The notes under the pieces are model-generated. The model was given only the letters and a program-made list of their open reading frames with translations. It did no database searches and was not told the origin of the DNA. A program made the translations under genes and the position numbers. A stretch of 64,000 bases of DNA. It comes from an uncultured delta proteobacterium. Its GTDB lineage: Bacteria > Myxococcota > Myxococcia > Myxococcales > Myxococcaceae. Location: the NCBI GenBank assembly GCA_963796055.1, contig CAWCKH010000004.1, positions 1,760,001 through 1,824,000 on the forward strand, given 5' to 3'. Shown here piece by piece: positions 39,330 through 64,000 of this stretch (positions are counted from its first letter, which is position 1; each line of letters begins with the position of its first letter).

Positions 39330-39527
39330 TCAGTGAGGGTGACCGTGATCCTTGCTGGGGCCGTGCCCGTGCGCGGCATCGCCGTGGCCGTGGTCCTGTT
39401 CGTGGCCCGGGTCATGCGGATGCTCGTGCGTGTGACGGTGGGTATGCGGATGGCTGTGGGTCGTGCCGTCCGCATGCGTATGTTCGTGGGTGTGCTGGTG
39501 CTCGTGTTCGTGGGTGTGCTCGGGCAT
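39330..39527 (-). CDS. histidine-rich putative metal-binding protein (24 His of 65 aa)
   Basis: HxHxH repeats; GGAGG SD before ATG. Confidence 0.7.
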
Positions 39528-39616: not shown

Positions 39617-40570
39617 ATGGTGCCGTCCGGTCCGATGCGGGTTCCCGCGGTGAGAGCCGGCGCGCTGCGCGGCGAGGCCTACGGCGTCGTCTTCGAGGTC
39701 CGGGTGGACGACCGCCGGCTCCTGCCCGCGGTGCGTGTGCGCTTCCCCCCGGGCTGGAACGTCAGCCGGCAGAGTCCAGCGGTCGTCCTCTCCCTGGTGC
39801 ACGAGGTGCTGCAGGAGGTGTTTGACACCTCCCCCCGGACGGCGGGGCCGTCGCGGCGGACGGGGGGTTCGCGCGGGAGGTCCCGGCCGGTGGTCGGTCT
39901 GTCCGTGCGAGTGGACGGGCAGCGGGTGGCCCGCGGGTTCAGCCATGCGCAAGCCCTGGACGTGCTCGAGAGCGAGCTGCAGCTCACGGTTGCCCGGCTC
40001 GCCCGCCCCGAGGTGTTCGTCCACGCCGGTGTGGTGGCGGTGGACGGGCGCGCCATCCTGGTTCCGGGGCGCTCCGGTGCGGGGAAGACCACCCTGGTGC
40101 GCGCGCTGGTGGAGGCCGGGGCAACGTACTACTCGGATGAGTACGCGGTGCTCGACCGGGAGGGGCGTGTGCATCCGTACGCGCGCCGTCCGAGCGTCCG
40201 GCGGCGGGCTGGACACAAGGAGCGGCACCCGGTTCCGCGGGTCAGAGGTCGCGGGCCGGTTCCGGTGGGGATGATCGTCGAGACGCGGTACTCGACCGGT
40301 GCCCGCTGGGACCCCGTGTCACTGTCGCCGGGCGAGCGCGTGCTGGCGCTGCTGGCGAACACCGTGCCGGCGCGGGATCGCCCGGCCGAGGTGCTCACCG
40401 TGCTGGCGCGTGCCACCGAGGGGACCCTCGGTGTCCGGAGCGACCGCGGCGCGGCGAAGCAGACTGCCCGGCTGCTCATCGCGCTCGCCCGGAGCTCCGA
40501 TGGGCTGGAGCGCGTCCGTCCGCCGAGACCTGCACCTCGAACTGCCGGAGGGCGGAGTCGCCGGCCCTGA
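39617..40570 (+). CDS. HprK-related P-loop kinase
   Basis: FVHAGVV, GRSGAGKTTL Walker A, YYSDEYAVLD; start 39617 or 39635. Confidence 0.8.
   Translation: MVPSGPMRVPAVRAGALRGEAYGVVFEVRVDDRRLLPAVRVRFPPGWNVSRQSPAVVLSLVHEVLQEVFDTSPRTAGPSRRTGGSRGRSRPVVGLSVRVDGQRVARGFSHAQALDVLESELQLTVARLARPEVFVHAGVVAVDGRAILVPGRSGAGKTTLVRALVEAGATYYSDEYAVLDREGRVHPYARRPSVRRRAGHKERHPVPRVRGRGPVPVGMIVETRYSTGARWDPVSLSPGERVLALLANTVPARDRPAEVLTVLARATEGTLGVRSDRGAAKQTARLLIALARSSDGLERVRPPRPAPRTAGGRSRRP
39814..39832. repeat. single REP-like palindrome inside a CDS
   Basis: GGAGGTGTTTGACACCTCC, matching the first arm of the doublets. Confidence 0.6.
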
Positions 40571-42391: not shown

Positions 42392-42692
42392 CGGCGTCAC
42401 CTTCCCACAGCTTCCGCACAGGCCGTAGCCCCAACTTGGGGAGAACTCCTGTGGCAAACGGTGGGGAGACGGCTCAGCCCGGCCCGTCCAGCAGCGCTTC
42501 GGCCTCGGCCAGCGAGAACGCCAGGCGGGAGTCGCTCCTCCAACCTCGCCCGCCCCTTGAAGACCACCACCACCCGCTCGCGCGCCGGAAGCGCTCGGAC
42601 CTCGACCATGTGCGGCGCGAACCCTGATCTGGGCGCGGCGTCCAGGTCAATCAAACTTCCGTGTTCGGATCTGACAGATTGCAATCGAGGTG

Positions 42693-45600: not shown

Positions 45601-45794
45601 AGCTGGCGTTCCACCTCCTCGGCCGGCTGACCCGGGTAGAGGGTGATGACCTGGACCTGCGTCTCGGTGGGATCGGGGAACGCCTCGACGGTCAGGTCGC
45701 GGAACGACAGCCAGCCCCACACCGCGACGATGGCGGTGAGGGAGAGCACCGCCGCCTTGTTCTTGAGCGAGAAGTCGACCAGGTGCTGGAACAC
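42693..45794 (-). CDS. CzcA/CusA family heavy-metal RND transporter
   Basis: EAFPD, GAVDFGVIVDG, EFLPELNEG, RLRPVLMT, GSETQRPLA. Confidence 0.93.
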   Translation of the reverse strand: MFQHLVDFSLKNKAAVLSLTAIVAVWGWLSFRDLTVEAFPDPTETQVQVITLYPGQPAEEVERQLGLPLERALNGIPQLSRLRNLSLFGLSSVTLTFNDGTDGLWARQQVLERLRDADLPDGIVPQLGPYATPIGEVYRYTLVGAGGDPMKLRTLQDWVVRPAFLRVNGVADVVSIGGLQREIHVQPDPSRLAAHGLTLASLEQGIKGGSVNASGGVLERGAEQLVIRSEGLFTSVEDLKAVRLATEGGTPVFLKDVATVTEGWAPRQGVVSRNESMDTVQGVVLMRRGENPSAVLGRIRTAVQDIDRRLAPEGVKLDPFYDRTDLVGTTLRTVGQNLLEGAVLVTLVLFVFLLDLRAALIVATLIPLSLLTSFIYLHLRGMSANLLSMGAVDFGVIVDGGVVIIEAILARMALSRSSAETVEEKIRQATTAVVRPTVFALLIIIAAYLPIFLLQRVEGRIFSPMANTVVSALAGALFFSVTLVPVLAALVWRRPVTHGESPLLSWVARRYEPTLRFCLGRPALLIGAVGVLLAGAALVLPSLGSEFLPELNEGALYMTFTLPANSSLTAGRKLVPRITQLLQGAPPVESVLSQLGRPEDGTDAKLANNLEFFVKLKPPDRWPRQTPTLGGVLDGLQQRIAEIPGIEANFSQPIRDNVNESISGQQGQIAVKLYGDDLAALQTQAEKVKAAIARVPGAADLALVKSASVLQVRVKPNRVALARYGMDLGDFQHVFQTALGGRPVADFWEGERKFDVVLRLPPADRDDVEKIRSLRVPVDGGLTIPLSALAEVETGVGRASINRENGRRYIGIRMNVRGRDMGGFVNEARERAEREAPLGKGMSIEWGGEFENKERAMARLATVVPVALLLTLVLLFKAFDSLPLAVLTLLNVPFALLGGVFGLWAFGFPLSVSAAVGFIALIGQASLNGVLVLSAIAGRRERGESLDEAILAGARERLRPVLMTASLAALGLVPAALSRGIGSETQRPLAVVIVAGTLSACALTLLLLPVMYRIWERLLERSRTAAEPAVGPI

Positions 45795-45798
45795 GGAC

Positions 45799-46986
45799 CT
45801 ATTGCTCCAGCTCCAGCTCCAGCTGGTTCAGCAGGAGGATGGCGCCCTTGCTGACGTACCGCGCCCCGGGCTCGAGGCCGGCGCGGAGCTCGACCTCGCC
45901 GCTGCGCTGGCGGCCCGGGGTGACGGTCACTCGCTCCAGCTTCCCCTCGCCGCGGGAGACGAACACCACCGAGACCTGCCCGTCGGTAACCACCGCCTCG
46001 GCGGGGACCCGCACCCGCCTCTGCGATGGGTCGGACTGGAGCTCGACGTCGACGAAGGCGTTGGGGCGGAGCGCGCGGTCCTCGTTGCCCGCGCGGATGC
46101 GCACCTCGACGGTGCGCCGCTTGGGGTCGACCACCTCGGAGATGCGGTCGATGGTGCCCGGACGGATGACGCTGCCGGCGCGGGTGCGGATGGTGACCTG
46201 TCCGCCCACCCGCAAGTCGTAGGCGTCGCTCTCCTGCACGTCGGCGAGGACCAGCACCTCGGACAGCTCGGAGATGCGAACCAGGGGGTGGTCCCCGGAG
46301 GGCTGGACCTCCTGGCTCGCCACCACATCCAGGTCGACGACGGTCCCGGAGCGCGGAGCGACGACCCAGAACAGGTTGTCGCCCTCCGGTGCGATCCGGA
46401 GCGACGAGCGCTTGGCGGCCGAGGCGCGTGCGGCCAGCTCGGCCTCGTGGAGGTCCGCCTCGGCGGCGAGGGCGTCCTTCTCGGGGGCGGCGCGGATCTC
46501 CACCAGCTCGCGGGCGCGGGCGGCGATGCGCCGCTTCACCTCGACGTTCGCCCGGGCGGAGGCCATCTCCCTTTCCAGATCTGCCCATGCGGCGGAACGG
46601 ACGTTGAACAGGCGGTCGCCCTCCTGCACCCGATCGCCGATGCGGACCAGTACCCGCTCCACCCGGCCGGGCATCGGAGCGCTGAGGGAGGCGGTCCGCT
46701 TCTCGTCGAAGCTCACCCGCCCGGGCACCGGTGGCGGGGGAAGCGGCGCCGCCTCGGCGGCGGTGGCCAGCTCGACGTAGCGCCACTGCGGCGCCGTTTC
46801 GGGGATCTGGAGCGTGTTGCCCCGGACGGTGATGCGGCGGACGGGCTGGGAGGTTGCCTCGTGCTGGCGGAGCAGGAGCCAGCTGGCGGAGACCAGGGCC
46901 ACCAGGGTGACGCCGCCGCCCACCAGGAGCGAGGGACGGGCGCGCCGGAATCCCCCGAGGGTGCCGGAGCCTGCGTCAGGGGACAT
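45799..46986 (-). CDS. RND periplasmic adaptor (CzcB-like)
   Basis: N-terminal anchor, lipoyl-like GRVERVLVRIGDRVQEGD, VDPKRRTVEVR. Confidence 0.9.
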   Translation of the reverse strand: MSPDAGSGTLGGFRRARPSLLVGGGVTLVALVSASWLLLRQHEATSQPVRRITVRGNTLQIPETAPQWRYVELATAAEAAPLPPPPVPGRVSFDEKRTASLSAPMPGRVERVLVRIGDRVQEGDRLFNVRSAAWADLEREMASARANVEVKRRIAARARELVEIRAAPEKDALAAEADLHEAELAARASAAKRSSLRIAPEGDNLFWVVAPRSGTVVDLDVVASQEVQPSGDHPLVRISELSEVLVLADVQESDAYDLRVGGQVTIRTRAGSVIRPGTIDRISEVVDPKRRTVEVRIRAGNEDRALRPNAFVDVELQSDPSQRRVRVPAEAVVTDGQVSVVFVSRGEGKLERVTVTPGRQRSGEVELRAGLEPGARYVSKGAILLLNQLELELEQ

Positions 46987-48274
46987 GGGGGATGCTCTCG
47001 GGCAAGGGGGGCAGCTCCCCGGCGGTTCGGGCCTGCGCCACGGTGAGGTGGAAGGCGAAGAGGTCGAGATCGGCGGCGTCGAGCTGGAGATCGCCCAGCG
47101 TCCGTCGGGCGAGGAGGAGGTCCGGAAGGGGCGCCCCGCCGCGGGTCACGGCGCTCTCCAGCCGCTGCACCACGTCGCGGGCCAGCGGCAAGGTGCGCTC
47201 CATCAGGCGGCTCCGGCGGGCGAGGGCGGCCGCGCGCTGCTGCTCGAGGGAGGTCAGGTCGCGCACGCTCGACGCCCGGAGCAGCAGCTGCGCTTGCCCG
47301 GCGGCCTCGGCCAGAGCGGAGGCCGCCTTGGCATCCGCCTGACCGTGGTCGAAGAACGGCAGCGGCAGGCTCACGCCGACCATGACGCTCTGGTGCTGGT
47401 TGCCGGAGATGACGAACTGATCGAGCACGTAGCCGATGCGGAAGGTGGGGTCGGGGATCCACCGGTTCCTGGCGAGGTCGAGGCTGGAGCGGGCGGCGGC
47501 CTCCTGGGCCTGGAGCGAGCGCAGGTCGGGCCGCTGATCCAGCGCCGGGGCGGGAGGGCTGGCCGCGAGCCGGGCGGAGAGGAACGCCCGGGCGCCATCG
47601 GTGCTGGCGAAGGGCCGGCAGGGGAGGCCCACGGTCTGAGCGCAGAGGAGGAGCGCAGCGGAGAGCTTCTCCCGCTCCTGGCCGAGGTTGGAGGCGTATT
47701 TCTCGGCCTCGAGCACCGCCCGGTCGACGTCGAGGCCGGCGATGTCACCGCGCTTCTGCCGCTCTCGCTGCAGATCGGCGAGGCGCTGGGCATCGCGCAC
47801 CGTCTCCTCGAGCGCGCCGACGCGGATCTCCGCGGTGGCCACCTCCGAGATGCGCTCCAGCAGGTCGAACCAGCGCTGGCGCAAGGTCTCGACGGCGTCG
47901 AACAGCGCGGCGTCGCGGGTGGCGCGGCTGCCGGCCTGGCGGGGACCGCGCTTGCCGATCTCCAGCGGCTGGTTGAGGGTGAAGGTGTAGTTGGGGACGT
48001 CCTTGAGCTTGTCGAGGCCCGGGGGATTCGTTGGCCCTAAGGCCAGGGTGCCCCACTGGAAGTCGAAGCCCGGATTGGGGAAGACCTCCGAGCGGGTGAC
48101 CTCCGCCTCTGCCTGTCCGAGCCTCGCGCGCGCGGCGACGAGGTCCGGGGAACGGGTCCACAGCAGCTCGACGAGGTCGAGGTCTGCCGGGGAACTGGAA
48201 AGGTCGAGTGACTCCGGATTGGGCGCGGTGGCGGCGAGCGCCACGGCGAGAAGCCAGGAACTGCTGATCAGCAC
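46976..48274 (-). CDS. TolC/CzcC family outer membrane factor
   Basis: QPLEIGKR, RPDLRS, VSLPLPFFDHGQ; first gene of the CBA operon. Confidence 0.88.
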   Translation of the reverse strand: MLISSSWLLAVALAATAPNPESLDLSSSPADLDLVELLWTRSPDLVAARARLGQAEAEVTRSEVFPNPGFDFQWGTLALGPTNPPGLDKLKDVPNYTFTLNQPLEIGKRGPRQAGSRATRDAALFDAVETLRQRWFDLLERISEVATAEIRVGALEETVRDAQRLADLQRERQKRGDIAGLDVDRAVLEAEKYASNLGQEREKLSAALLLCAQTVGLPCRPFASTDGARAFLSARLAASPPAPALDQRPDLRSLQAQEAAARSSLDLARNRWIPDPTFRIGYVLDQFVISGNQHQSVMVGVSLPLPFFDHGQADAKAASALAEAAGQAQLLLRASSVRDLTSLEQQRAAALARRSRLMERTLPLARDVVQRLESAVTRGGAPLPDLLLARRTLGDLQLDAADLDLFAFHLTVAQARTAGELPPLPESIPHVP

Positions 48275-48576
48275 GCGGCGGCACCAGAGCAAGGAGCCTG
48301 CCACCCCGAAATTCAACGGGTTGCCACGGTCCTGGGCGGAGGGATGCCAGTTGCTTGCAGGGGCGGCTGAAGCGGCGTTTCACCGCGAGGCGGGGCGCGA
48401 ATGACAGCGGTGTGGAGCGCCGGGTGCGTCCGGCTTCCCGTCCCGGGCACCGGATGGCAGCGGCTGTCGGGGGCTGTCTTCCTCGTTCGCGCCGCGCGTC
48501 CGCGGGGTGCGGTCAATACCGTTCGCGAGCCCTCGTTGCTCTGGCTGCCAGGCGGGCTGGAGCGTAACCTCGGCGC

Positions 48577-49029
48577 ATGGCCTCATCCCTGGGCTTCGTT
48601 CCGCGGCGGCGGCCGAGCGGACTGGTCAGCGAGCACCTCGACGGTGAGGTGCTGCTGTATGTCGAGGCGACGCACAAGGCGTTCTGTCTCAACCCGGCGG
48701 CGTCGCGGGTCTGGGAGTCGATCGACGGAGCGCGGGACGTCTCGGGCATCGCCCTGCGCACCGCGCTCGATCCGGAGCTGGTCGGCGGCACGCTGCGGGA
48801 GATGGGCGAGGCGGGGCTGCTGGAGGAGGTGCCGGAGCTCCCGGGCGTGGATCTGTCGCGGCGGCGGCTCGTGCGCGCGGGGCTGGTGGCGATCCCGTTC
48901 ATCCTCGCGATCACCGTGCCCCGCGCGGCGGAGGCGGCGTCGTGCGTCACCGGCCTGCCCGGTACACCCTGCGATGACACCCACACCTGCTGCGTGGGCA
49001 TCTGCAACGCCGGGTTCTGCAAACAGTGA
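48577..49029 (+). CDS. PqqD/RRE domain fused to Tat-like leader and Cys6 knottin-like core (copy 1)
   Basis: LDGEVLLY...LNPAASRVWESIDG (PqqD), SRRRLVR + hydrophobic + AEA, then C-x8-C-x5-CC-x3-C-x4-C. Confidence 0.8.
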   Translation: MASSLGFVPRRRPSGLVSEHLDGEVLLYVEATHKAFCLNPAASRVWESIDGARDVSGIALRTALDPELVGGTLREMGEAGLLEEVPELPGVDLSRRRLVRAGLVAIPFILAITVPRAAEAASCVTGLPGTPCDDTHTCCVGICNAGFCKQ

Positions 49030-50117
49030 AACTGGACGAGGCACTGGCGCTGGCGATCGCCGGCGCGCTGCGAAGAGCCTGGGCTGACCCCGGTCCACCC
49101 CGCGTGCCGGCGGTGGACGTTCGACGCTGGGCCGAGCGCTTGGTCGAGGGTGGTGTCGCAGGGCTCGCGTGGTGGCGCATCAAGAACACCGAGATGGGGA
49201 CGCTCGCCCAGCTCTTACCGCTGCGCGCAGCGTTTCAGCACCACGCCCTGACGGCGGCCAGGCAGGAACGCGATCTTCCGCATCTTCTGGCTCACTTCAA
49301 TGCCGAAGGGATCGAGCCGATCCTGTTCAAGGGGTGGACCCTCGCGCGACTCTATCCGCACCGCGCGCTCCGTCCGTTCGGTGACTTCGACCTGCTGGTG
49401 CGGGAGTCCGAGGTCGATCGGGCCCGCACGGTTCTGCGCTCCCTCGGACCGGACCTTCAGTCGCGGGCCGATGTAGACACCGCGCGGACGCTGGCGCGCT
49501 ACCTGCCTGATCGAACGGAGGCCGAACTCTTCGGCCGTGCCCGCTCGGAGACGGCCGGTGGTGCTCGGCTCAGGACGCTCGCCGCCGAGGACCACCTCCG
49601 TCTGGTGACGCTGCACCAGCTTCATCACGGGGCCTGGCGGCCGCTGTGGCTGTGTGACGTGGCGTTGTTGCTCGAGGCGCTCCCAGCGGAGTTTTCCTGG
49701 GAGCGGTGCCTCGCAGGCGATCCACGGCTGAGTGAGGGTGTACTGGTCAGCGTGGCGCTCGCGCACGAGTTGCTCGGAGCGACCATTCCGCGCGGAGTGC
49801 CGCAGGTGGCGGTCCCCCGCTGGCTCCGACGTGCGGTGTTCCACGGATGGGCGCATGGCTACGAGAGCATGCCCCCGTCGCTGTACGACCTCCGGAAGCT
49901 GGGGTGGCCAGAGGCGGTGACGGCAATCCGCGCGCGGTGGCCGGATCCGGTGAGCGCGACGGTGCATCTTCGCGCTCCGTTCCGAGCCGTGCCGCGTCCC
50001 GTGGTCCAGCTCACGGAGTGCCTGCGCCGGGCGGCGGCTTTCGTCCGGCGTGATTTGCGCTGGCGTGCGGGTCTGGACGCGCAGCTTGCAACTGTCGGCA
50101 AGGGGGTTGTGCCGTGA
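49026..50117 (+). CDS. nucleotidyltransferase family protein (NTP_transf_5-like, copy 1)
   Basis: LFKGWTLARLYP...RPFGDFDLLV, WLCDVA; GTG overlaps the upstream TGA. Confidence 0.85.
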   Translation: MKLDEALALAIAGALRRAWADPGPPRVPAVDVRRWAERLVEGGVAGLAWWRIKNTEMGTLAQLLPLRAAFQHHALTAARQERDLPHLLAHFNAEGIEPILFKGWTLARLYPHRALRPFGDFDLLVRESEVDRARTVLRSLGPDLQSRADVDTARTLARYLPDRTEAELFGRARSETAGGARLRTLAAEDHLRLVTLHQLHHGAWRPLWLCDVALLLEALPAEFSWERCLAGDPRLSEGVLVSVALAHELLGATIPRGVPQVAVPRWLRRAVFHGWAHGYESMPPSLYDLRKLGWPEAVTAIRARWPDPVSATVHLRAPFRAVPRPVVQLTECLRRAAAFVRRDLRWRAGLDAQLATVGKGVVP

Positions 50118-53100
50118 CTGCCTGGAGGGCCCTGAGGGCCGCGCTGCTCATGGTGGCGGCGGCTAGCAGCCCGAGTCTTGCGCAGGTGACCTGCCCCATT
50201 GGGGCGAGCACGTGGCTGGACGGCGCGGGCTCGTGGGTGACCGGAACGAACTGGAATCCGACGGGGGTGCCAGCCCCGAGCGCCGATGTCTGCTTCGATA
50301 CTTCCACGGCCAACCCCACGCTCGCGGCCGGGACCACGACGGTGGGGACGCTGAACGTGCTGTCCACGGGGACCCTCACGTTGACCGGTGGCTCTCTCCG
50401 CAACTTCACGATCAACGGCGGGATCAATGCCGATGGTCCGTTCACCTTCAACAGCATCACCAATGTCATTCCCTCGGCGACTCAAAGCTGGGTGATCAAC
50501 GGGTTCGGAAGCACATTCAATTCTCCGCTATCGGTGCCGGTCCTGACTGCCGCGACGACAACGATCAACGTCACCGGGATCGCTGACCTCACTTTCAACG
50601 TGGCCGCCCCTCGGGGATTTCAGGCGTTCAACTGGGGCGCAGGCGTCCTGACCCTGACGACCAATGGGCTTGGATCAGGCACTCCGATCACCTTGAGTGG
50701 CGCGAATGCGGCACTCCTCGTCAGCTCGACGGCTGCACTGACTCTCGACAATCCCGTCATCGCCACTGCCTCCGGAGAGTTGTTGGCAGTGGACGGAGCG
50801 AGCGGTGTTCAGCACGCGCTCGGGCGTGTGACGGTCTCACCAGGCGTGACGCTCCAAGAGTTGCTGGGGGGCACGAACAACGTCAAGCTCCAGCTCGGTG
50901 GTCTCACGCTCGGCGCGGGCTCGACACTCCTGAAGCAGGACTTCGGCGGCATCTATGTCAATGGGAGCGTGTCCGACACGGCGAGCAGCACGCTGACTCT
51001 GTTCATCGGGTTCACGACCCCCACTGGCTCGCAGCTGGACGAGGGGCTGCACTTCCAGTCGAGCACGACGGTCAACTCGATCATCTCCTCCACCGCGAGT
51101 TTGAACTCGGCGATGGTCGGCGCGGACGGGGCCACCACTCTGACCCTCGCCGGTGTGGTCGATGTGGGGAACGCCGGCCGCCTGATCCTCATCCCCCGGG
51201 GCGGGGCCACCATCCTGTTCGGTCCTTCCTCGTTCAATGCACCGGGCAATCCGAACGACATCCAGCTCCGCGGCACCGCTGGCAACACCGTCGAGTTCAC
51301 CAACGCGGCGGTGACCGCGAACGCAGTCACGGTGTACGACGGGCTCAGTTTCCAGACCGACGCCAACCCACCGCCACCGACGGTCACCTTCTCCACCACG
51401 AGCGGAGCGACCTGGCGGGTTCGTAACGCGGCTCAAAGTCTCCCCGGAGCGCTCACGCTCAACGCCGCTGGGACCGTGGACACGGGAACCGATCTGACCA
51501 TCACCGGGGTGCTTGCCGGGTCCGGAGCGCTCACCAAGACGGGTGCTGGTTCGTTGACCCTCGGGCCGGGGACCCATACCCACAACGGTGGAATCACCGT
51601 GAACGCCGGGACGCTCGAGGTGGACGGAACGCTCACTGGTGAGAACACCATCAGCATCAACAACGGTGGTGGGCTCGCAGGTGCCGGGACGCTGCAGTCG
51701 GGCACCGGGCCGATCACCGTGGCAGCGGGCGCGCGCTACACGCCCGGCAGCGGCGGCACCGGAATACTCGCGACCAATGACCTGAGCCTCAGCGACACCT
51801 CGGTGCTGAACTTCACCGTGGGCACACCGACGACTACGGGTTCGGTCACCGGGGCGCTGCTCCTCGACGGCATCCTCAACATCACGCAGGGCCCGGGCTT
51901 CGCCCAGGGCGTGTACACGATCTTCACCGCGACCGCCGCGATCACCAACAACGATCTTCGTCTGGGCACGGTGCCCACCGGTTTCTCCTACGGCTACGCG
52001 GTCAACGGAAACCAGGTCGAGCTGCACGTCGGTCCGCCCCCCACGGCCGTCGAGATGGTGAAGTCCGATGCCGTCAGCGACGGCAGCTCGGCTCAGGTCG
52101 CCTGGGAAGCAGGGACCGAGGTGCGGAATCTCGGCTACCGCGTGTACCGGGAAGAGAACGGCCGTCGTCAAGAGATCAGCGGACTGATCGCCGGCTCATC
52201 GTTACGGGCGGGATTCGACCCCCTCGCCGGCCGCAACTACGGCTTTGTTGACCCGAGCGGATCGTGGGGAGCCCGCTACTGGATCGAGGCCATCGGTCTG
52301 GACGGGAAGAGCCAGTGGTTCGGGCCGGTGAACGCTCGGCGTGGAGACTTGCCCCAGACGCGTGTGCAATCCGCTGCGCTCGTGGCAAAGGTCGGGGCGT
52401 CGGCGCTGGTCGCCTCCGTTGAACGGCCCAGCGCTCGCCAGGTGGACCCACCGGGTGTCGATCGCTCTTGGCGAGATCCGAACCTGAGGCGACAGTGGGA
52501 GATCGCGGCCAGCTCGACTGCGGTGAAGCTCCTCGTCCATCAGGACGGCGTGTACCGGGTCAGCGCAGACCAGCTCGTCCAGGCCGGCCTTCCTGCGGGG
52601 ACTCCGCTCGGCTCGCTGAGGCTCTGGTCGGGCGGTAGCCCCGTCGCGTTCCGCGTGGTCGGGAATGCTGTCGAATTCTTCGGGCAGGCCGCGGACACCC
52701 GGTACACCGACACCCGGGTGTACTGGCTCACCACTGGGCTGGGCCAACCGATCTCGATCAAGGCGGCTCCGACGGCGAACGCCACGGGCGCAGCCGGCAG
52801 CTTCCTCGAAACGCTCGAGATTCGCGACCGTACGCTGTACCTCGCGGCACTCCTGAACGCAGAGACGGATGGCTTCTTCGGGGAACCGCTCATCGGAACG
52901 AGCCCGATGGAGCGCGTGTTCTCCACTCCTGCGCTGGCGGTGGTGGCGAGCGACCCCGCCGTGCTGGAGGTGAGCGTCCAGGGGCTCACCAACGGTAACC
53001 ACACGATCGACGTCACCGTGAACGGGCTCGTCGTGGGGACCGTCCACAGTGTGTTCCAGGACGTGGCGAAGGCCCGCTTCATGGTTCCGCCTGGGCTGCT

Positions 53101-54598
53101 GGTGGCGGGAGACAACAAGGTCACCCTGGTTGGGCGCACTAGCTCCGAGATCGCGATCGAGATCTCGCAGCGGCTCACCTACCCACGTCAGTACATTTTG
53201 GGTGGCCCGCTCCGTTTCACGGCTCCGACTGGATTGGCGCTGACGCTCGCCGGCGCGGACGCATCCACTCACGTCCTCGACATCACCAACGTCCTCTCCC
53301 CTGCGGCCGTCGCGCTCACCAGCACTTCGGGAGGGGCGCGTCTGATCGCTAGTGGCTCGGGTACACGCATCCTCTACGCCTACCGCGATTCCGACGTGCG
53401 CTCTCCCGCCTGGGTGCAGAACGTCTCGAGTGCCTGGCACAACTCCAGCGGCGCCGATCTGGTCATCATCGGTCAGCGGGATCTCCTACCGAGCCTCCGT
53501 CCGCTCGCGGAACAGCGGGCGAGTGAGGGCTTGAAGGTCGCGCTGGTCGACGTCACTGACGTGTACGACGAATTCTCTGCGGGCGAGAAGGATGCGATGG
53601 CCATCCGCGCATTCCTCTCGGCGGCGATGGAGCGGTGGTCGACGCCGCCCCGCTTCGTGCTTCTCGTCGGATCGGCCACCTTCGATCCGCGCGGCTGGCT
53701 CGGACAGCCGGAGCTCGACCAGGTCCCGACGGTGCTGGTGCAGACTCGCTACCTCGAGACGGCATCGGATGACGCACTCGTCACCTTCCACGGCACCGTC
53801 CCTGACTTGGCGATCGGGCGGCTACCGCTCTCCACGCCAGCGGCGATGGAAGCGGCTGTGGCAAAGATCGTCGGGCGCAAGCTGGCGGGCGGCGAGGACA
53901 CGCTGCTCCTGATACGCGATCGGGACGGCACCATCTCGTTCTCCGCAGCCTCAGCCGAGGTGCGGGCTGCAGTCTCAAGCTGGAAGGCGCAGGACTTCCC
54001 ACGCGGCGCCGATGACGCCGCTACTCATTCCGCCCTGCTTGACGCACTTCGCAGTGGTCCGATCGCCGTCGACTACCAGGGTCACGGAGCGGAGGACTTC
54101 TGGGCCGGACGGATATTGGCGTCCACGGATGCCGATGCTCTGGCCGGTGCCGGCACGAGTTCGCTCGTGGTCGCCGCCACGTGTCTGAACGCGTACTTCC
54201 TGGACATCGGTCGCGAGAGCTTGGGCGCCGCGATGCTCAGGACCCCAGAAGGCGGCGCCTGGGGCGTCTGGGCGTCCTCCGCCCTGACACTTCCAACCGA
54301 CCACGCGCTGCTGAGCAAAACGCTGCTCTCCGCGGTGCTGAACGACGGGATGACGCTCGGGGAGGCGACCCTCAAGGCCAAGCAGGCGGTGAGTGATCTC
54401 GACGTTCGTGCCACCTTCCACCTCCTCGGCGACCCGAGCGCCCGGGCCGTGGCCACGCGGAGCTCTGCACTCACGATCTCGAAGCCGAAGAGCTCCTCGG
54501 CCGGCGGCTGCAATACCCCGGGTGGTCCGCTCTCGGCGCTGGCGCCGCTGGTCTTGGCCGTCCTGGCGCTCTCGCTCCGCCGCCGCTCGGTCTCCTGA
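50114..54598 (+). CDS. large surface protein: beta-strand passenger + C25 (gingipain-like) cysteine peptidase + MYXO-CTERM-like anchor (copy 1)
   Basis: Signal peptide, LTKTGAGSLTL repeat, DVYDEFSAG, RFVLLVGSATFDPR, IGRLP, YQGHG, ATCLN, LLGDPS; GGC...TM...RRR tail. Confidence 0.88.
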   Translation: MTAWRALRAALLMVAAASSPSLAQVTCPIGASTWLDGAGSWVTGTNWNPTGVPAPSADVCFDTSTANPTLAAGTTTVGTLNVLSTGTLTLTGGSLRNFTINGGINADGPFTFNSITNVIPSATQSWVINGFGSTFNSPLSVPVLTAATTTINVTGIADLTFNVAAPRGFQAFNWGAGVLTLTTNGLGSGTPITLSGANAALLVSSTAALTLDNPVIATASGELLAVDGASGVQHALGRVTVSPGVTLQELLGGTNNVKLQLGGLTLGAGSTLLKQDFGGIYVNGSVSDTASSTLTLFIGFTTPTGSQLDEGLHFQSSTTVNSIISSTASLNSAMVGADGATTLTLAGVVDVGNAGRLILIPRGGATILFGPSSFNAPGNPNDIQLRGTAGNTVEFTNAAVTANAVTVYDGLSFQTDANPPPPTVTFSTTSGATWRVRNAAQSLPGALTLNAAGTVDTGTDLTITGVLAGSGALTKTGAGSLTLGPGTHTHNGGITVNAGTLEVDGTLTGENTISINNGGGLAGAGTLQSGTGPITVAAGARYTPGSGGTGILATNDLSLSDTSVLNFTVGTPTTTGSVTGALLLDGILNITQGPGFAQGVYTIFTATAAITNNDLRLGTVPTGFSYGYAVNGNQVELHVGPPPTAVEMVKSDAVSDGSSAQVAWEAGTEVRNLGYRVYREENGRRQEISGLIAGSSLRAGFDPLAGRNYGFVDPSGSWGARYWIEAIGLDGKSQWFGPVNARRGDLPQTRVQSAALVAKVGASALVASVERPSARQVDPPGVDRSWRDPNLRRQWEIAASSTAVKLLVHQDGVYRVSADQLVQAGLPAGTPLGSLRLWSGGSPVAFRVVGNAVEFFGQAADTRYTDTRVYWLTTGLGQPISIKAAPTANATGAAGSFLETLEIRDRTLYLAALLNAETDGFFGEPLIGTSPMERVFSTPALAVVASDPAVLEVSVQGLTNGNHTIDVTVNGLVVGTVHSVFQDVAKARFMVPPGLLVAGDNKVTLVGRTSSEIAIEISQRLTYPRQYILGGPLRFTAPTGLALTLAGADASTHVLDITNVLSPAAVALTSTSGGARLIASGSGTRILYAYRDSDVRSPAWVQNVSSAWHNSSGADLVIIGQRDLLPSLRPLAEQRASEGLKVALVDVTDVYDEFSAGEKDAMAIRAFLSAAMERWSTPPRFVLLVGSATFDPRGWLGQPELDQVPTVLVQTRYLETASDDALVTFHGTVPDLAIGRLPLSTPAAMEAAVAKIVGRKLAGGEDTLLLIRDRDGTISFSAASAEVRAAVSSWKAQDFPRGADDAATHSALLDALRSGPIAVDYQGHGAEDFWAGRILASTDADALAGAGTSSLVVAATCLNAYFLDIGRESLGAAMLRTPEGGAWGVWASSALTLPTDHALLSKTLLSAVLNDGMTLGEATLKAKQAVSDLDVRATFHLLGDPSARAVATRSSALTISKPKSSSAGGCNTPGGPLSALAPLVLAVLALSLRRRSVS

Positions 54599-54823
54599 GG
54601 CCGGACGTTGTGAACCGGCGCGCTCTGCGCCGTGGGTCACCACCGACTTGGTGGCCCGCGCCGACCCCGCATCCCACCTCTGCGGGGAATGTCGGACCGC
54701 GTCGGCAAACTACCGACTGAACTTCGAGCTCTCTCCATGTCGTCGACGCGCAGAGGCGCTTTCTCGACGGAGCGTCGGAGTGTCTGCGAGGATGCGGGCA
54801 TCGATTCTGCACCCTGACCCTTG

Positions 54824-55279
54824 ATGCCGAACCGACCCAAGGCCCGGACGGACCAGCTCCTCGTCCAGAGAACTGGACAGGACACCCTGGTCTACGACGA
54901 GCGGACCCACCGGGCGCACTCCCTCGATGCGAGGGCGGCACGGGTGTGGGAGCTCTGCGACGGCGCACGGACCGAGCCCGAGATCGCGCAGGCTTACGGC
55001 GAGGGCGCAGCAGGCGAGGCGGTGGTGAGCTGGACGCTGGCAGCGCTTGAGAAATCCGCGCTCCTCGAGGACGACAGCGGAGTGGAGGCGCGGGCGGCAC
55101 TGAGCCGGCGGGCGCTGATGAGGACCGTCGGGCTCGCGGCGATCCCGGTCATCATGGCGATCACCGCTCCGCGGGCGCGGGCGGCCGTGTCGAGTTGCTC
55201 GAACGGTGGGCAGCAGTGCTCGACGAAGCCGTGCTGCCCCATGTTGACCTGTGACACCCAGACCTTCACCTGTCAGTGA
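54824..55279 (+). CDS. PqqD/RRE domain fused to Tat-like leader and Cys6 knottin-like core (copy 2)
   Basis: DTLVYD...HSLDARAARVWELCDG, SRRALMR + hydrophobic + ARA, then C-x6-C-x4-CC-x4-C-x6-C. Confidence 0.8.
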   Translation: MPNRPKARTDQLLVQRTGQDTLVYDERTHRAHSLDARAARVWELCDGARTEPEIAQAYGEGAAGEAVVSWTLAALEKSALLEDDSGVEARAALSRRALMRTVGLAAIPVIMAITAPRARAAVSSCSNGGQQCSTKPCCPMLTCDTQTFTCQ

Positions 55280-56280
55280 CCGCGGTGGCACATCCCCTGG
55301 CGATGGCGTTGCGCGACACCTTCCGCACCCAGGCGGTCGGGCCGATGTCGCTCGCCCCTGAGCTCGTCCGCTCTGCCGAAGTGACTGGAGTCGAGGCGCT
55401 GCTGCTGCGGCGTCGAGAGGACGTGCCATCCGGGACGGAGCGCTTCCAGAGTCTGGAGTACCTTCGTCGCGAGCGCTGGCTGGCCTCGGTCTTCACCGCG
55501 CTCGAGTCCCACGGAATCCGGGCGGTCACGTTCAAGGGCTGGGCTCTCGCCCGCCTCTACGGCCGACCCGGGCTGCGGCCGGTCGGCGACGTGGACCTCG
55601 CCGTCCGTCCCGAAGACTTCGGACACGCGCGGACGGTACTCGCCGCCTTCCAGGGCGAGAACGAGGTCGATCTCCAGTCGGACCTCTCGCGGTACCTTCC
55701 TGACCGGAGCCCGGAGGCGCTGCTGACCTGCGCCCAGGCCGTCGAGGTCGCCGGTGGTCACATCCAGGTACTGGGTCCCGCCGACCACCTCCGTCTGGTT
55801 TGTCTCCACCAGCTCCACCACGGATCCTGGCGGCCTCTTTGGCTGTGCGACGTGGCGGTGCTGCTCGAGTCATTGCCGGCGGACTTCTCCTGGGCGGAGT
55901 GCCTTCATGGGAGCCGGCACCTGGGAGAGGGCGTGCTCGCCTGCGTGGGTCTCGCCTGCGAATGGCTGGGCGCAAGACCGACGGTGCCGCCGCCGGAGGC
56001 CGTCGTCCCGGAGTGGTTCCGCCGTGCGGTCGGGAGTGCATGGGACCGGGGCTACCGTCCGTCTCCGGAGCGGCTCGAGGGCATCTCGCTGGCCCGGCTT
56101 CCAGAAGCGCTCAGGGCACGCTGGCCGGATCCACTGTCCTCGACGCTCCATCTGGACGCACCTTTCCACCGGGTACCGAGACTGCCGATCCAGGTTGCGG
56201 AGCTGGTCCGCCGCAGCTCGCGCCACGCCGTCCGCCGGTGGCGGTCGCGCGGAGCGGGGGTGGGAAGGGGGGAGTCGTGA
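55276..56280 (+). CDS. nucleotidyltransferase family protein (copy 2)
   Basis: TFKGWALARLY...RPVGDVDLAV, HLRLVCLHQLHHGSWRPLWLCDVA; paralog of 49026-50117. Confidence 0.85.
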   Translation: MTAVAHPLAMALRDTFRTQAVGPMSLAPELVRSAEVTGVEALLLRRREDVPSGTERFQSLEYLRRERWLASVFTALESHGIRAVTFKGWALARLYGRPGLRPVGDVDLAVRPEDFGHARTVLAAFQGENEVDLQSDLSRYLPDRSPEALLTCAQAVEVAGGHIQVLGPADHLRLVCLHQLHHGSWRPLWLCDVAVLLESLPADFSWAECLHGSRHLGEGVLACVGLACEWLGARPTVPPPEAVVPEWFRRAVGSAWDRGYRPSPERLEGISLARLPEALRARWPDPLSSTLHLDAPFHRVPRLPIQVAELVRRSSRHAVRRWRSRGAGVGRGES

Positions 56281-60761: not shown

Positions 60762-60905
60762 GTCGATTGACCGGGAAGGATCGCCGTGCTCTCGCGCGCC
60801 CGCCGCGCACACCTCGGTAGGTTCGGAGCGTCGACCGCATCCTCGACCGGGGCAGATCGCCCTGCGAAGATGCAGGGCATCGAACCTGCAAACGGCTCGC
60901 CGCTG

Positions 60906-63900
60906 ATGTGGTCTCGAGACAGGCTCCACCGGCGGTGCGGCAGGAGCGCGGCCCGAAGGCCGAGCGCCCGTCGTCCCACGGCACTGCTCTCGTTGGGGCT
61001 GGCGGCAGCGGTGCTGCTGTCGACGGAGGTCCGAGCCGCCGCGGTGAATTGGCAGGCCGGAAGCGGCGCCTGGAACAACGGTGTCAACTGGTCGACGGGG
61101 ACCGTTCCGACCTCGAACGACGACGTCACCATCAATTCGGCGGTCACCGTCCAGGTGAACAACCAGGGCGGCAACGCGGTCGCCCGCACTCTCACCCTCG
61201 GATCGGGCGCGGCCCTGACCCGGGCGAACGGAAGGACGCTCGCGGTCGGTCAGGGCATCAACGTTGCCTCCGGCAACGCCACCCTGAACATTCCCTTCAC
61301 CGCCGGAACCCTCAGCAACACCGGTACCGGCACCCTGACCGTCGGCCAGTCCGGGACCGTGACCGGCAACGTCGGGGTGAGTGACGGGGGAACCCTCGCT
61401 TTTACCGGAACCGCCACTTTGGGCGCCGGAAGCTTCACCCTCGCATCGGGTTCGGCGCTGACCTTGAACTTCTCGAACACGACCACGGTCGCGCTCCTCA
61501 CCGTCTCGGGCAACGCGACGGTGGCCGGGACGCTGAACCTCACCGGCTCCACCCCCAGCCTCGCCGGAAGCCCGTACCACCTCGTCAGGTCCACCGGCGG
61601 CACGATCGACTTCACCGGGCTCTCGCTTGGCACCGTTCCGGGAGGCCGCACCTTCGGGTTCCGCGTCCTGGGAACCGACCTGGTCATGGATGTCACGCAG
61701 AACCCGATCGCGATCGACTCGGTCACCTCGACCACCGGGACCTGCGCCGCGGGGACAGTCAGCTGGCAGCACACCATCGGCGCCACGGCAAACGACCGGC
61801 TGCTGATCGTCGGTGTCTCGACCGGAAGCAACTCGGGCAGCGCGTTGCCCACCTCGGTGAGGTACGGGACCCAGACCCTGACCGCGCGAGGCGGAGACAA
61901 CGCCGGAACCACGCAGGTGCAGATCTACACGCTGCTCGCGCCTCCGCGGGGGACGAACACGGTGACGCTGACCTTTCCGGGAGGCAGCACCTGCTTCGCG
62001 GTTGCGGGCTCGGTCTCCTACACGGGTGTGAGCCAGTCCAACCCGATCGGCGGAGTGGTCAGCGACACCGAGACCGGGAACACCCCGCTGCTGGCGACCA
62101 TCGACGTGAACGTGCAGCCCCATTACAAGGTGTTCGCCGTCCTCTCCTCGAACACCGCGACGTCGGCCACCCCGGTCCAGTCGAACGTGACGGCGCGCTG
62201 GTCCGCGCTCAACGGGACCGAGTTCGGAACCGCCGAGACCCTGGCCTACGGGGGAAACAACAACACCACCATCACTCTCTCGTACAACATGGGCCCGCCC
62301 AGCTCGACCTTCTGGTCGCTCTCGGCCATGCCGATCCACCCGGCGAATCCAAACGCTGCGGCGCCACCCGCGCCCGTCGTCCGGTGGTCGGCCGGGGGTG
62401 CCGCGCTTTCCTGGAGCCTGGACGCCACCTCGGATGTGGTGGGCTTCCGCGTCTGGAGAGAGGCCGCTGGGCAGCGGGTGCTCCTCACGCCGGGGCTCCT
62501 TGCCGGCCCACTGCTCGCCAGCAGGGCGACATTGCTCGCCGGCTCGCAACCCGGATGGGTCGACCGGAGCCCGGTTCCGAGTGCCACGTACCTGGTCGAG
62601 TCACTGCACCGGGACGGAAGCACCCGCTGGACGCCCGCCGTCGCCGGCTCCGGTACGGCTCCTGCCCTCTCCTCGGAGCTCGTCGCGGTTTCTCCCTCGT
62701 CGCTGCTCCGTGCACTGCCAGGGCTGCGGGTCGAGCCTGCCGACCTTCCGGCGCTACCGCCGCGGCCTGGCTCCCGGGAGCTCCAGTGGGAGCTCGCCGC
62801 GGGCCACGCGGTCAAGCTTGTCGTCTCGCGGCCGGGTGTGGTCCGCGTGTCTGCGGAGTCGCTTTTCGCTGCAGAGATTCCGGTCGGAACTCCGGCTTCC
62901 TCGCTCCAGCTGTTCCGCGAGGGGCGCCCGGTTGGCCGCACCGTGCTCACCACAGACGGAGCAACGCTCCAGCCGGGCGACTCGGTCGAGTTCTACGGTC
63001 ATGGGATGGACACGCGGTACTCGGGCTCGGCGGTCTACTGGCTGACCACCGGAGCCGGACGAGGCAGGGAGATCCCAACGGTGTCGGCGCCGTCGCAGGG
63101 TGTCGACACCGGCTCGTTCATGGCCGCGACCGAGATCCGGGAGCGGTTGACCTGGTTCGGCGCGGCCCGGAACGGAGACGCAGAGAAGTTCTTCGGGCCC
63201 GCCGTGCACAGCCAGGCCCGCACGCGGACGATCTCCGCCGAGGGGCTCGACGTCGCCGGCAGCGGAGCGCAGCTGGAGGTCGCGCTCCAGGGCGTCACCG
63301 AGGTGCCTCACGCGGTCAACGTGAGTCTCAACGGTCTGTCGCTCGGAACCCTCTCGTTCGAGGGCGCGGTGCCCGGGCGGGCGACCTTCGGGGTGCCGCC
63401 TGGAGCGCTCATCCCGGGGGACAACGAGATCGAGCTGGTGGCGCCCGCCGCCTCCGACATCTCCCTGGAAGAGTTCGTCCGGCTGGTCTACCCGCGGCAG
63501 ACGCTCCGGGGCTCGGGTGCGCTGGACTTCAGGCTTCAGGGCGGGAGTGCCACGCTCCTCAAGGGCTTCGACCCCACGCTTACGCGGGTCCTCGATGTGA
63601 CCGACCCGGAGGCCCCCGTGCAGCTCGTCACCTGGGACCTCTCCAGCGACGCGGCGGTCGCGGCCCCCGGCTCGGGCCCTCGGCACCTGCTGGCGTACAT
63701 CCCGGGCGATACCACTCCTCCGGCGTCGGTGCGCGTCAACCATCCGAGCAGCTGGCACGCGGCCGAGGGGGCGGACCTGGTCATCGTCGGTCCGGCCGGG
63801 CTCTTCGGTGCAGTGAAGCCCCTGGTGGAGCGGCGGCAGTCGGAGGGGCTGCGGGTGGCCCTGGTGGACATCGAGGACGTCCAGGACGAGTTCGCCTCCG

Positions 63901-64000
63901 GGGAGAAGAGCGCCGAGGCCTTGCGCCGCTTCCTGGCCCAGGCGCTCGAGGCGTGGACGGTCCCGCCCCGATTTCTGTTGCTGCTCGGCGCTGCCACGTA
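60906..64000 (+). CDS. third large C25 peptidase surface protein, truncated by window end (absent from ORF track)
   Basis: LLSLGLAAAVLLSTEVRAAAVNWQAGSGAWNNGVNWS...; same frame reaches DVQDEFASGEKSA...PPRFLLLLGAAT at the window end; start 60870 or 60906. Confidence 0.85.
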   Translation, partial: MWSRDRLHRRCGRSAARRPSARRPTALLSLGLAAAVLLSTEVRAAAVNWQAGSGAWNNGVNWSTGTVPTSNDDVTINSAVTVQVNNQGGNAVARTLTLGSGAALTRANGRTLAVGQGINVASGNATLNIPFTAGTLSNTGTGTLTVGQSGTVTGNVGVSDGGTLAFTGTATLGAGSFTLASGSALTLNFSNTTTVALLTVSGNATVAGTLNLTGSTPSLAGSPYHLVRSTGGTIDFTGLSLGTVPGGRTFGFRVLGTDLVMDVTQNPIAIDSVTSTTGTCAAGTVSWQHTIGATANDRLLIVGVSTGSNSGSALPTSVRYGTQTLTARGGDNAGTTQVQIYTLLAPPRGTNTVTLTFPGGSTCFAVAGSVSYTGVSQSNPIGGVVSDTETGNTPLLATIDVNVQPHYKVFAVLSSNTATSATPVQSNVTARWSALNGTEFGTAETLAYGGNNNTTITLSYNMGPPSSTFWSLSAMPIHPANPNAAAPPAPVVRWSAGGAALSWSLDATSDVVGFRVWREAAGQRVLLTPGLLAGPLLASRATLLAGSQPGWVDRSPVPSATYLVESLHRDGSTRWTPAVAGSGTAPALSSELVAVSPSSLLRALPGLRVEPADLPALPPRPGSRELQWELAAGHAVKLVVSRPGVVRVSAESLFAAEIPVGTPASSLQLFREGRPVGRTVLTTDGATLQPGDSVEFYGHGMDTRYSGSAVYWLTTGAGRGREIPTVSAPSQGVDTGSFMAATEIRERLTWFGAARNGDAEKFFGPAVHSQARTRTISAEGLDVAGSGAQLEVALQGVTEVPHAVNVSLNGLSLGTLSFEGAVPGRATFGVPPGALIPGDNEIELVAPAASDISLEEFVRLVYPRQTLRGSGALDFRLQGGSATLLKGFDPTLTRVLDVTDPEAPVQLVTWDLSSDAAVAAPGSGPRHLLAYIPGDTTPPASVRVNHPSSWHAAEGADLVIVGPAGLFGAVKPLVERRQSEGLRVALVDIEDVQDEFASGEKSAEALRRFLAQALEAWTVPPRFLLLLGAAT

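Follow-up and report, generated by a model that had tools for sequence, protein, structure and literature searches.

A predicted precursor joining an RRE domain, a twin-arginine-like leader and a knottin-type six-cysteine core

The gene at 54824..55279 (+) of the window, by which we mean the whole 64,000-nucleotide stretch of DNA analyzed here, encodes what its sequence and structural models indicate is a three-part precursor, in which a PqqD/RRE domain is followed by a twin-arginine leader and then by a six-cysteine core of the knottin type. This protein is copy 2 of the fusions described below, and it is fairly probable that it represents a precursor resembling that of the LPP system but with a built-in RRE, which would be phosphorylated, perhaps glycosylated, and then exported by the Tat pathway. 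An RRE fused to its own leader and core appears to be a new architecture relative to the LPP and lasso systems, as no description of it was found in the literature searched.

The original prediction concerned the 177 bases at 55103-55279, which encode the C-terminal 58 residues of this 151-codon ORF, and translation of these bases bore out the frame and protein sequence that it gave. An in-frame TTG at 54821 offers an alternative start, and a scan of 54500-54900 for promoters and terminators found none. The RRE/PqqD domain (residues 1-83, 54824..55072, +), assigned by structure matches and by a PF05402 score above the cut-off (25.2 vs. 23.4 bits), is followed by a variable linker (residues 84-93, 55073..55102, +), the leader S94-A121 (55103..55186, +) and the 30-residue core with six Cys (55187..55276, +). 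The leader comprises, in order, the twin arginines R95-R96, a helix, an uncharged h-region with Pro108, a strand at residues 110-114 of the AF2 model, Pro116 and an Ala-rich cleavage region. The AF2 model of the fusion has a pLDDT of 88.6. Homologs numbered 49 among 806 candidates, and the closest titled relatives, 75-80% identical, are from Myxococcaceae.

Lasso B1 proteins are the nearest structural neighbors of the RRE: TbiB1 (5v1v) is the best Foldseek match (E 2.1e-3), and superposition on 6jx3_B gives a VIA Z of 9.5 and an rmsd of 2.2 Å over 80 residues. RRE residues Y24 and L34 are invariant in the family. Residues 1-117 of the model align with NisB plus its leader (4wd9), which is an indirect sign that the leader strand lies in the leader cleft. 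In a mean-field coupling analysis (356 sequences, effective number 213) the pair H32-A112 ranked first among 6,790 pairs (z 6.0) and D35-P108 ranked 22nd, the remaining top pairs being noisy. Both couplings are in line with the contact between LppB N33 and LppA P-13 described in PMC13381572, where the leader strand pairs with the RRE sheet; the LppB-LppA structures were absent from the fold-search matches and the comparison rests on the published description. Taken with the model, the couplings make it very likely that the leader sits on its own RRE, a feature that the original prediction missed, and binding between molecules is also possible. A sequence search with leader and core against the PDB gave no significant match, the best solved knottin having an E of 0.2.

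The original prediction overlooked that the core appears, from its sequence and model, to have the spacing and fold of a cystine knot. The cysteines are arranged as C-x6-C-x4-CC-x4-C-x6-C, with the C-C-CC-C-C order and modeled fold of inhibitor cystine knots, and the core is modeled at a pLDDT of 93-97. Foldseek superimposed it on cystine-knot peptides with an rmsd of 0.8-0.9 Å over 27-28 columns, at a weak E of about 2.6, and the knottin Pfam matches of the relatives are likewise weak (PF07740 in 7/150, PF11703 in 9/150).

Copy 2 stands in a tandem array, all on the + strand, that runs fusion 1, NTP_transf_5, C25 peptidase, fusion 2, NTP_transf_5 and two C25 peptidases. Fusion copy 1 (48577..49029, 150 aa) is an old paralog from a lineage with its own conserved core. 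It is followed by the first NTP_transf_5 gene (49026..50117), whose product is 47% identical to that of the second, and by the gene for a secreted C25 peptidase of the gingipain/PorU-like type (50114..54598; PF01364 E 1.3e-60, His/Cys motifs); this protein bears passenger repeats and, at its C-terminus, a sorting-like tail. Downstream of copy 2, and overlapping its stop codon, lies the second NTP_transf_5 gene (55276..56280), encoding a nucleotidyltransferase-fold protein (PF14907 E 5.7e-28) with D-x-D present. The second C25 gene (56277..60761) has a weak MYXO-CTERM match (16.3 bits, below the cut-off of 20), and the third (60786..64000) extends past the window end to position 64922. All three C25 genes are regarded as accessory. 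The array expands and contracts among relatives.

The unit of fusion 1, NTase and C25 gene (48577-54598) is missing at the same position in relatives L003, L004, L005 and L007, where a copy-2-type fusion directly follows an efflux pump, and other relatives have two copy-1-type units. The gene for an HprK-like kinase (39650..40570, +), the sole one found in the genome, is separated from the fusion cassette by an RND efflux insertion (42693-48316, -) encoding an AcrB/CusA-type pump, a membrane fusion protein and an outer-membrane factor. This insertion is present likewise in several relatives and absent from G091, where kinase, fusion, NTase and C25 genes are contiguous and the kinase directly adjoins the fusion. 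Between kinase and pump there is also a gene for a membrane protein of about 600 aa (40652-42457, -) with a long Pro/Ala/acidic and coiled-coil-like insert. A 65-codon ORF with about 40% His (39330-39527, -), located between a response-regulator-like ORF and the kinase and 3 kb from the heavy-metal-type RND pump, possibly encodes a metal-binding peptide. A third fusion of the genome (L002:9870-10340, -; G000:C4 about 704880-705340) has neither kinase nor NTase beside it and lies directly behind the fourth C25 gene, which encodes a 1,858-aa protein.

Partner genes were compared at two scales. Among 201 genomes of the organism's family, 19, from four genera and reflecting few independent events, bear a full-length fusion at E<=1e-9; for the local neighborhood, the 84 fusions (of 160) flanked by at least 1.6 kb in either direction yielded 54 representative loci, four register or frameshift loci having been dropped. 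It is conceivable, although on balance unlikely, that the knottin core acts on the C25 peptidases as an inhibitor or regulator, or is itself their substrate, to be trimmed by them or anchored at the surface. The four C25 genes of the genome all lie beside the three fusions, C25 genes flank fusions in Acidobacteriota too, and a strong C25 match is found in 15 of the 19 fusion genomes. Protease inhibitors are numerous among cystine knots. Nevertheless, C25 genes occur within 5 kb at only 8/54 loci, and nine genomes have a strong C25 match and no full-length fusion. This explanation concerns function rather than biosynthesis and is compatible with a precursor that carries its own RRE; a role of the product at the cell surface beside C25 proteins is plausible. 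A C25 enzyme as the dedicated leader protease was considered and then given less weight, being near so few loci, missing from 4/19 fusion genomes and equipped with an export signal of its own.

A further feature overlooked by the original prediction is that the leader looks, by its sequence, like an internal twin-arginine signal. It reads S-R-R-x-L-M-R, like several Tat-like proteins of the genome. In the family statistics (355 sequences in 151 clusters at 60% identity), whose shares are biased upward by a retrieval profile that contained the Cys core and the Ser, RR is found in 150/151 clusters, two leader Pro eight residues apart in 150/151, an h-region without Asp or Glu in 148/151 and a small-x-Ala site in 114/151. 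At E<=0.1 the curated Tat models TIGR01409 and TIGR02811 match 19/150 and 39/150 relatives, respectively; one of the TIGR01409 matches exceeds the cut-off, and the leader in the window matches no Tat model. The genome encodes TatC and one S26 signal peptidase, and its single S24 and S26 matches are far from the cassette. In the single tatC frame of 547 codons (L192-L193, G000:C4:2159759-2160853), about 150 inserted residues separate the two halves of the Pfam model. In copy 2 the usual cleavage register of the family would place an Arg at -3, and cleavage may therefore occur behind A120 instead; the Ser would then be residue 3 of the product, as it is in LppA.

It is rather unlikely, but worth weighing, that the kinase modification is real while the twin arginines belong to an enzyme-docking helix instead of a Tat signal, the product then being cytoplasmic or membrane-bound, or freed by another protease. 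The RR signal is preceded by 93 residues of protein, the hydrophobic stretch contains two Pro, the model shows this stretch occupied by the RRE, TIGR01409 matches few family members, and LPP employs a dedicated peptidase and an ABC pump instead (PMC13381572). Against a docking helix, RR and the uncharged h-region are near-invariant, R95 and R96 are absent from the listed kinase-interface residues of the complex model described below, and six-Cys cores and Ig-like, collagen and Pro/Thr-rich tails are typical of exported proteins. Nor was a dedicated exporter or peptidase found in the window cassette or beside the fusions scanned, where S24/S26 peptidase, ABC ATPase, lasso protease and cyclase were all missing from the neighbors (90 proteins, some of them fusions or profile matches, plus 146/170 further candidates, from heuristic gene calls with near-duplicate loci skipped). 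Internal Tat signals exist in actinobacterial Rieske proteins (PMC5449189). Tat export remains our preferred reading of the leader, and the predicted modification of its junction is considered next.

A Ser directly before Cys1 was originally proposed as a conserved candidate site of modification. In copy 2 this residue, S124, is Ser in 7, Thr in 28 and a gap in 7 of 42 close homologs, whereas S123 (55190..55192, +), two residues before Cys1, is Ser in all 42; in copy 1 the counterpart of S123 is the Ser before Cys1. S123 is probably a phosphorylation site, as suggested by its conservation, the complex model and analogy with LPP. The latter system, lppA-K-B-S-D-N of Paenibacillus alginolyticus, was published in 2026; according to PMC13381572, the LppA leader has the motif YxxPxVLxHQxIxFETxxS, the core starts with AQS, P-13 and S3 are 15 residues apart, and S3 is polyphosphorylated by the HprK-like LppK, which does not accept S3T, whereas LppN had no effect or activity in its own system. 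Here P108 precedes S123 by the same 15 residues. With the upward bias noted above, this spacing leads to Ser in 113/151 clusters and to Ser or Thr in 138/151, Ser or Thr stands seven residues after the second leader Pro in 139/151, and AAS (42) and AQS (35) are the most frequent junctions. Even among 13 tails with at most one Cys, 12 have Ser or Thr at the S123 position. LPP and lasso RREs depend on a Y/WxxP motif in the leader. Its aromatic residue is lacking in the family, where position -3 of the leader Pro is V in 61, I in 32, A in 24 and L in 22 of 150 and Tyr and Trp fall outside the six commonest residues; the Pro and the hydrophobic residue at +2 are present.

On sequence and model evidence, the HprK-like kinase appears to be the core partner of the fusion. 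It was found in 19/19 fusion-bearing genomes vs. 2/182 others, and of the latter two, G110 has a fusion fragment and G041 a weaker kinase match. The kinase keeps His, P-loop and S-D-E motifs as well as the PEPCK/HPrK fold. All PF05402 matches of the genome are fusions and none is a free PqqD protein; stand-alone PqqD matches in other genera of the family were set aside as unrelated short RREs without a tail. The kinase-fusion complex model scored 0.82, the best of three controls 0.22. The mark used is reached by 116/157 solved complexes and 2/215 mismatched pairs and is a rough guide here, with our own alignments. The model runs share >=74% of contacts, with partner pLDDT >=77. Kinase helices 221-252 pack on RRE residues L13, D20, L22, Y24, A31 and S33 and on the leader strand, and the interface also includes leader residues 109-122, kinase residues 119-120 (H120) and P-loop 136-137; S123 itself is absent from the listed interface residues. 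The model suggests that the kinase docks on the RRE and on the leader/core junction. No kinase-RRE complex was among the fold-search rows.

Within 3.5 kb, the 54 loci have a kinase gene in 28, an NTase gene in 27 and both in 19; GT2 occurs in 4, and 11 have none of kinase, NTase, GT2 and C25. A kinase is nearby in 24/39 Ser fusions vs. 4/15 fusions with another residue (p 0.03, with kin that are non-independent), which leaves 15/39 Ser fusions without a kinase nearby and 4/15 non-Ser fusions with one. GT2 replaces the NTase beside the fusion at loci L018, L019, L024 and L030, and at L013, L020 and L039; one such GT2 glycosyltransferase has TPRs and one is fused to GT10. Two more NTP_transf_5 genes of the genome (L199, L200) have no RRE match near them, one lying among sugar-nucleotide/glycosyltransferase-like genes and the other beside a metallophosphoesterase-like gene. 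Fusions with Asn for the conserved Ser (L182, L148, L151, L163, L164, L183, L177, L010) adjoin C25 genes and are mostly without kinase or NTase in the DNA examined.

The original prediction considered the Ser a candidate for phosphorylation or nucleotidylation. The leader/core architecture and a likely phosphorylation site stand, while nucleotidylation is less likely than hexosylation of the phosphate because of the precedent of pseudomycoidin, in which PsmN is required to add hexoses to phospho-Ser (PMC6993621). There is only a small chance, in our estimate, that the product is instead an unmodified, Tat-exported mini-protein, the RRE being a signal-peptide chaperone, the Ser part of the cleavage junction, and kinase and NTase acting elsewhere. 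Such a reading would draw on the frequency of Ser or Thr at +2 in ordinary Tat substrates (about 5/14 Tat-like controls of this genome, by eye), on copy 3, which has no kinase or NTase beside it, and on some Acidobacteriota members with Asn or Ala at the Ser site. The conservation of the Ser is weakened as an argument by the general frequency of Ser or Thr behind signal-peptidase sites and by the shared ancestry of the family members; Thr, which LppK did not accept (PMC13381572), occupies the position in 25/151 clusters. The reading is opposed by the co-occurrence of kinase and fusion in every fusion-bearing genome, by the failure to find any other RRE or precursor partner in the genome, by a complex model that reaches the mark and places the junction at the active site, and by a spacing equal to that of the proven LppA site (PMC13381572). 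Phosphorylation of S123 followed by export remains the better account.

How far leader and core differ in conservation was assessed between paralogs and among orthologs. Copies 1 and 2 are old paralogs by sequence, identical at 27/82 positions of the RRE (33%), 18/28 of the leader (64%), 11/30 of the core and 6/20 of the non-Cys core (30%). The leader is thus better kept than the core, as originally predicted, yet on these sequences divergence in the core does not exceed that in the RRE, and it is the conserved leader that stands out. The six-Cys order C-C-CC-C-C is common to both copies, as claimed, although all four loop lengths differ (8,5,0,3,4 in copy 1 and 6,4,0,4,6 in copy 2, whose loops copy 3 shares) and the gap of the original alignment belongs in copy 1. 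The terminal Gln cited as a further shared feature is an incidental match: it is found in 29/42 copy-2 homologs, but the copy-1 orthologs seen end in Gly.

Among the 42 close homologs of copy 2 (the window copy and 41/42 close matches, one with a truncated core having been dropped and two fragments and five distant matches left out), mean pairwise identity is 0.77 for the RRE, 0.48 for the linker, 0.84 for the leader and 0.55 for the core, or 0.45 without Cys, so that cores are less conserved than leaders here too, which is the outcome that the original prediction expected from such a comparison. NG86 dN/dS for 22 distinct DNA sequences (what remained of 26 once 4 identical ones were removed, with three loci excluded for truncation or frameshift) is 0.22 for the RRE, 0.47 for the linker, 0.15 for the leader, 0.31 for the core and 0.39 (0.26-0.57) for the core without Cys, values to be read with pS near saturation at 0.44-0.53. 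Selection on orthologous cores is relaxed yet purifying, and the core appears from the sequences to be the fastest-evolving folded part without being hypervariable inside one lineage. The strong form of the original prediction, a hypervariable core under positive selection like that of toxin or conflict peptides, is overstated and most improbable: family-wide tails do differ completely in length and type and the loops of the core change at about double the rate of the RRE, but dN/dS among orthologs is 0.31-0.39 and positive selection was not found, tandem duplicates in one relative have near-identical cores, and copies 1 and 2 are about equally diverged in RRE and core.

The fusion is widespread. 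Profile searches returned 549 clusters (50% identity) at E<=1e-30 and 5,242 at E<=1e-10, the weaker matches possibly including plain RREs. A genome scan with RRE-only patterns gave 79 loci, of which 52, from Myxococcota, Acidobacteriota, Chloroflexota, Cyanobacteria, Actinomycetota, Gemmatimonadota and Armatimonadota, match beyond the RRE; their tails have >=4 Cys in 33 and <=1 Cys in 16. C-C-CC-C-C is the commonest Cys pattern (59/136, a share raised by the Cys core in the retrieval profile). Tail length in the family varies between 7 and 721 residues; IPT/TIG, Gly-rich and Pro/Thr repeats occur among the tails, and two profile matches have a collagen or Hint-like tail. The odd tails comprise Hint/intein-like, collagen, choice-of-anchor Z/IPT and Pro/Thr types (P0167, P0183, L060:9944-12493, L042:10001-10702). 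Named family members are labeled just 'PqqD family' or 'hypothetical', and the ESM Atlas held PqqD-labeled clusters only.

The following model is proposed. The RRE would very probably bind its own leader, Pro108-Thr114, as an extra beta-strand, and RRE and bound leader are likely to dock on the HprK-like kinase, which would phosphorylate Ser123, possibly several times. The adjoining NTP_transf_5 enzyme might then add a sugar or nucleotide to the phosphate, a step for which PsmN offers the analogy and of which we are less than evenly confident. With somewhat better than even probability, the leader would act as an internal twin-arginine signal, TatABC passing the tail across the inner membrane and the housekeeping signal peptidase cutting after A120 or A121 while the RRE stays cytoplasmic. 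Formation of three disulfides, presumed from a modeled fold, would give a cystine knot of 30-31 residues with the modified Ser at position 2 or 3. For oxidized products that begin at A121 or V122, the calculated monoisotopic masses are 3222.23 and 3151.19 Da, rising to 3302.20 and 3231.16 Da with one phosphate. More tentatively, the first ~123 residues may be a portable modify-then-export tag, in which the RRE masks the Tat signal, presents the Ser to the HprK-like kinase and an NTP transferase, and frees the signal only afterwards. Cargo of every kind, be it a 7-residue stub, a bacterial cystine knot or a 721-residue Ig-repeat protein, would then leave the cell with a phospho-glycosylated N-terminus, by a route in Myxococcota, Acidobacteriota, Chloroflexota and Cyanobacteria that links RiPP biosynthesis with Tat quality control. 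Should the model be right, it would amount to an all-in-one production of secreted modified peptides, undescribed so far in the literature searched. The chemistry of NTP_transf_5 enzymes could then be studied with just three genes, cystine-knot peptides of bacterial origin would be available as a natural library, and a tag within one chain could serve for site-specific phosphorylation and for export.

Published RREs are either free-standing or built into enzymes; the literature search, which covered openly accessible main texts, returned lasso, LPP, daptide and general papers only and found no RRE fused to its own precursor. The RRE-Finder text consulted mentions no kinase, nucleotidyltransferase or twin-arginine motif, though its figures S6/S7 and the LPP supplements could list the architecture, and the portion of the daptide preprint consulted does not describe it. 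The best NCBIfam matches of kinase and RRE are the HPr-rel-A models, both far below cut-off (TIGR04352 kinase, 64.1 vs. 200 bits; TIGR04353 PqqD-family chaperone, 21 vs. 35 bits), and TIGR04353 models a stand-alone RRE of 74 residues, whereas here it is fused. Phosphorylated and glycosylated lasso peptides (paeninodin, and pseudomycoidin with PsmK/PsmN) employ the same kinase and NTP-transferase families, but their target Ser is C-terminal rather than near the core N-terminus (PMC6993621); neither a macrolactam synthase nor a B2 protease was found in the cassette, PF13471 having no match over the cut-off and PF00733 none nearby. Compared with known knottins, the core is bacterial and comes from an RRE-fused precursor. 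The leader resembles Tat signals in its S-R-R-x-hydrophobic-hydrophobic-R motif, uncharged h-region and Ala-rich cleavage region with a basic residue; internal Rieske signals follow membrane helices (PMC5449189), whereas here a soluble domain precedes the signal and apparently binds it.

The closest likeness is to LPP as set out in PMC13381572: both systems have an RRE, an HprK-like kinase and an NTP transferase and lack a cyclase, and they share a conserved leader with a variable C-terminus, the Pro-Ser distance of 15, an A-x-S core start and pairing of the leader strand with the RRE. LPP has a discrete RRE, a Y/WxxP leader, a SipW-like archaeal-type signal peptidase and an ABC exporter, and occurs in Bacillota; here the RRE is fused to its own precursor, the aromatic residue gives way to a twin-arginine motif and hydrophobic h-region, neither peptidase nor exporter of that kind was found, and the tails are disulfide knots or large proteins, mostly in Gram-negative phyla. 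By analogy, the fusion system would work like LPP and paeninodin tailoring, yet it departs from LPP in three features, and because it has no discrete RRE, no YxxP and no dedicated peptidase and exporter that could be found, we regard it not as an LPP member but as a related design in which the precursor brings its own RRE.
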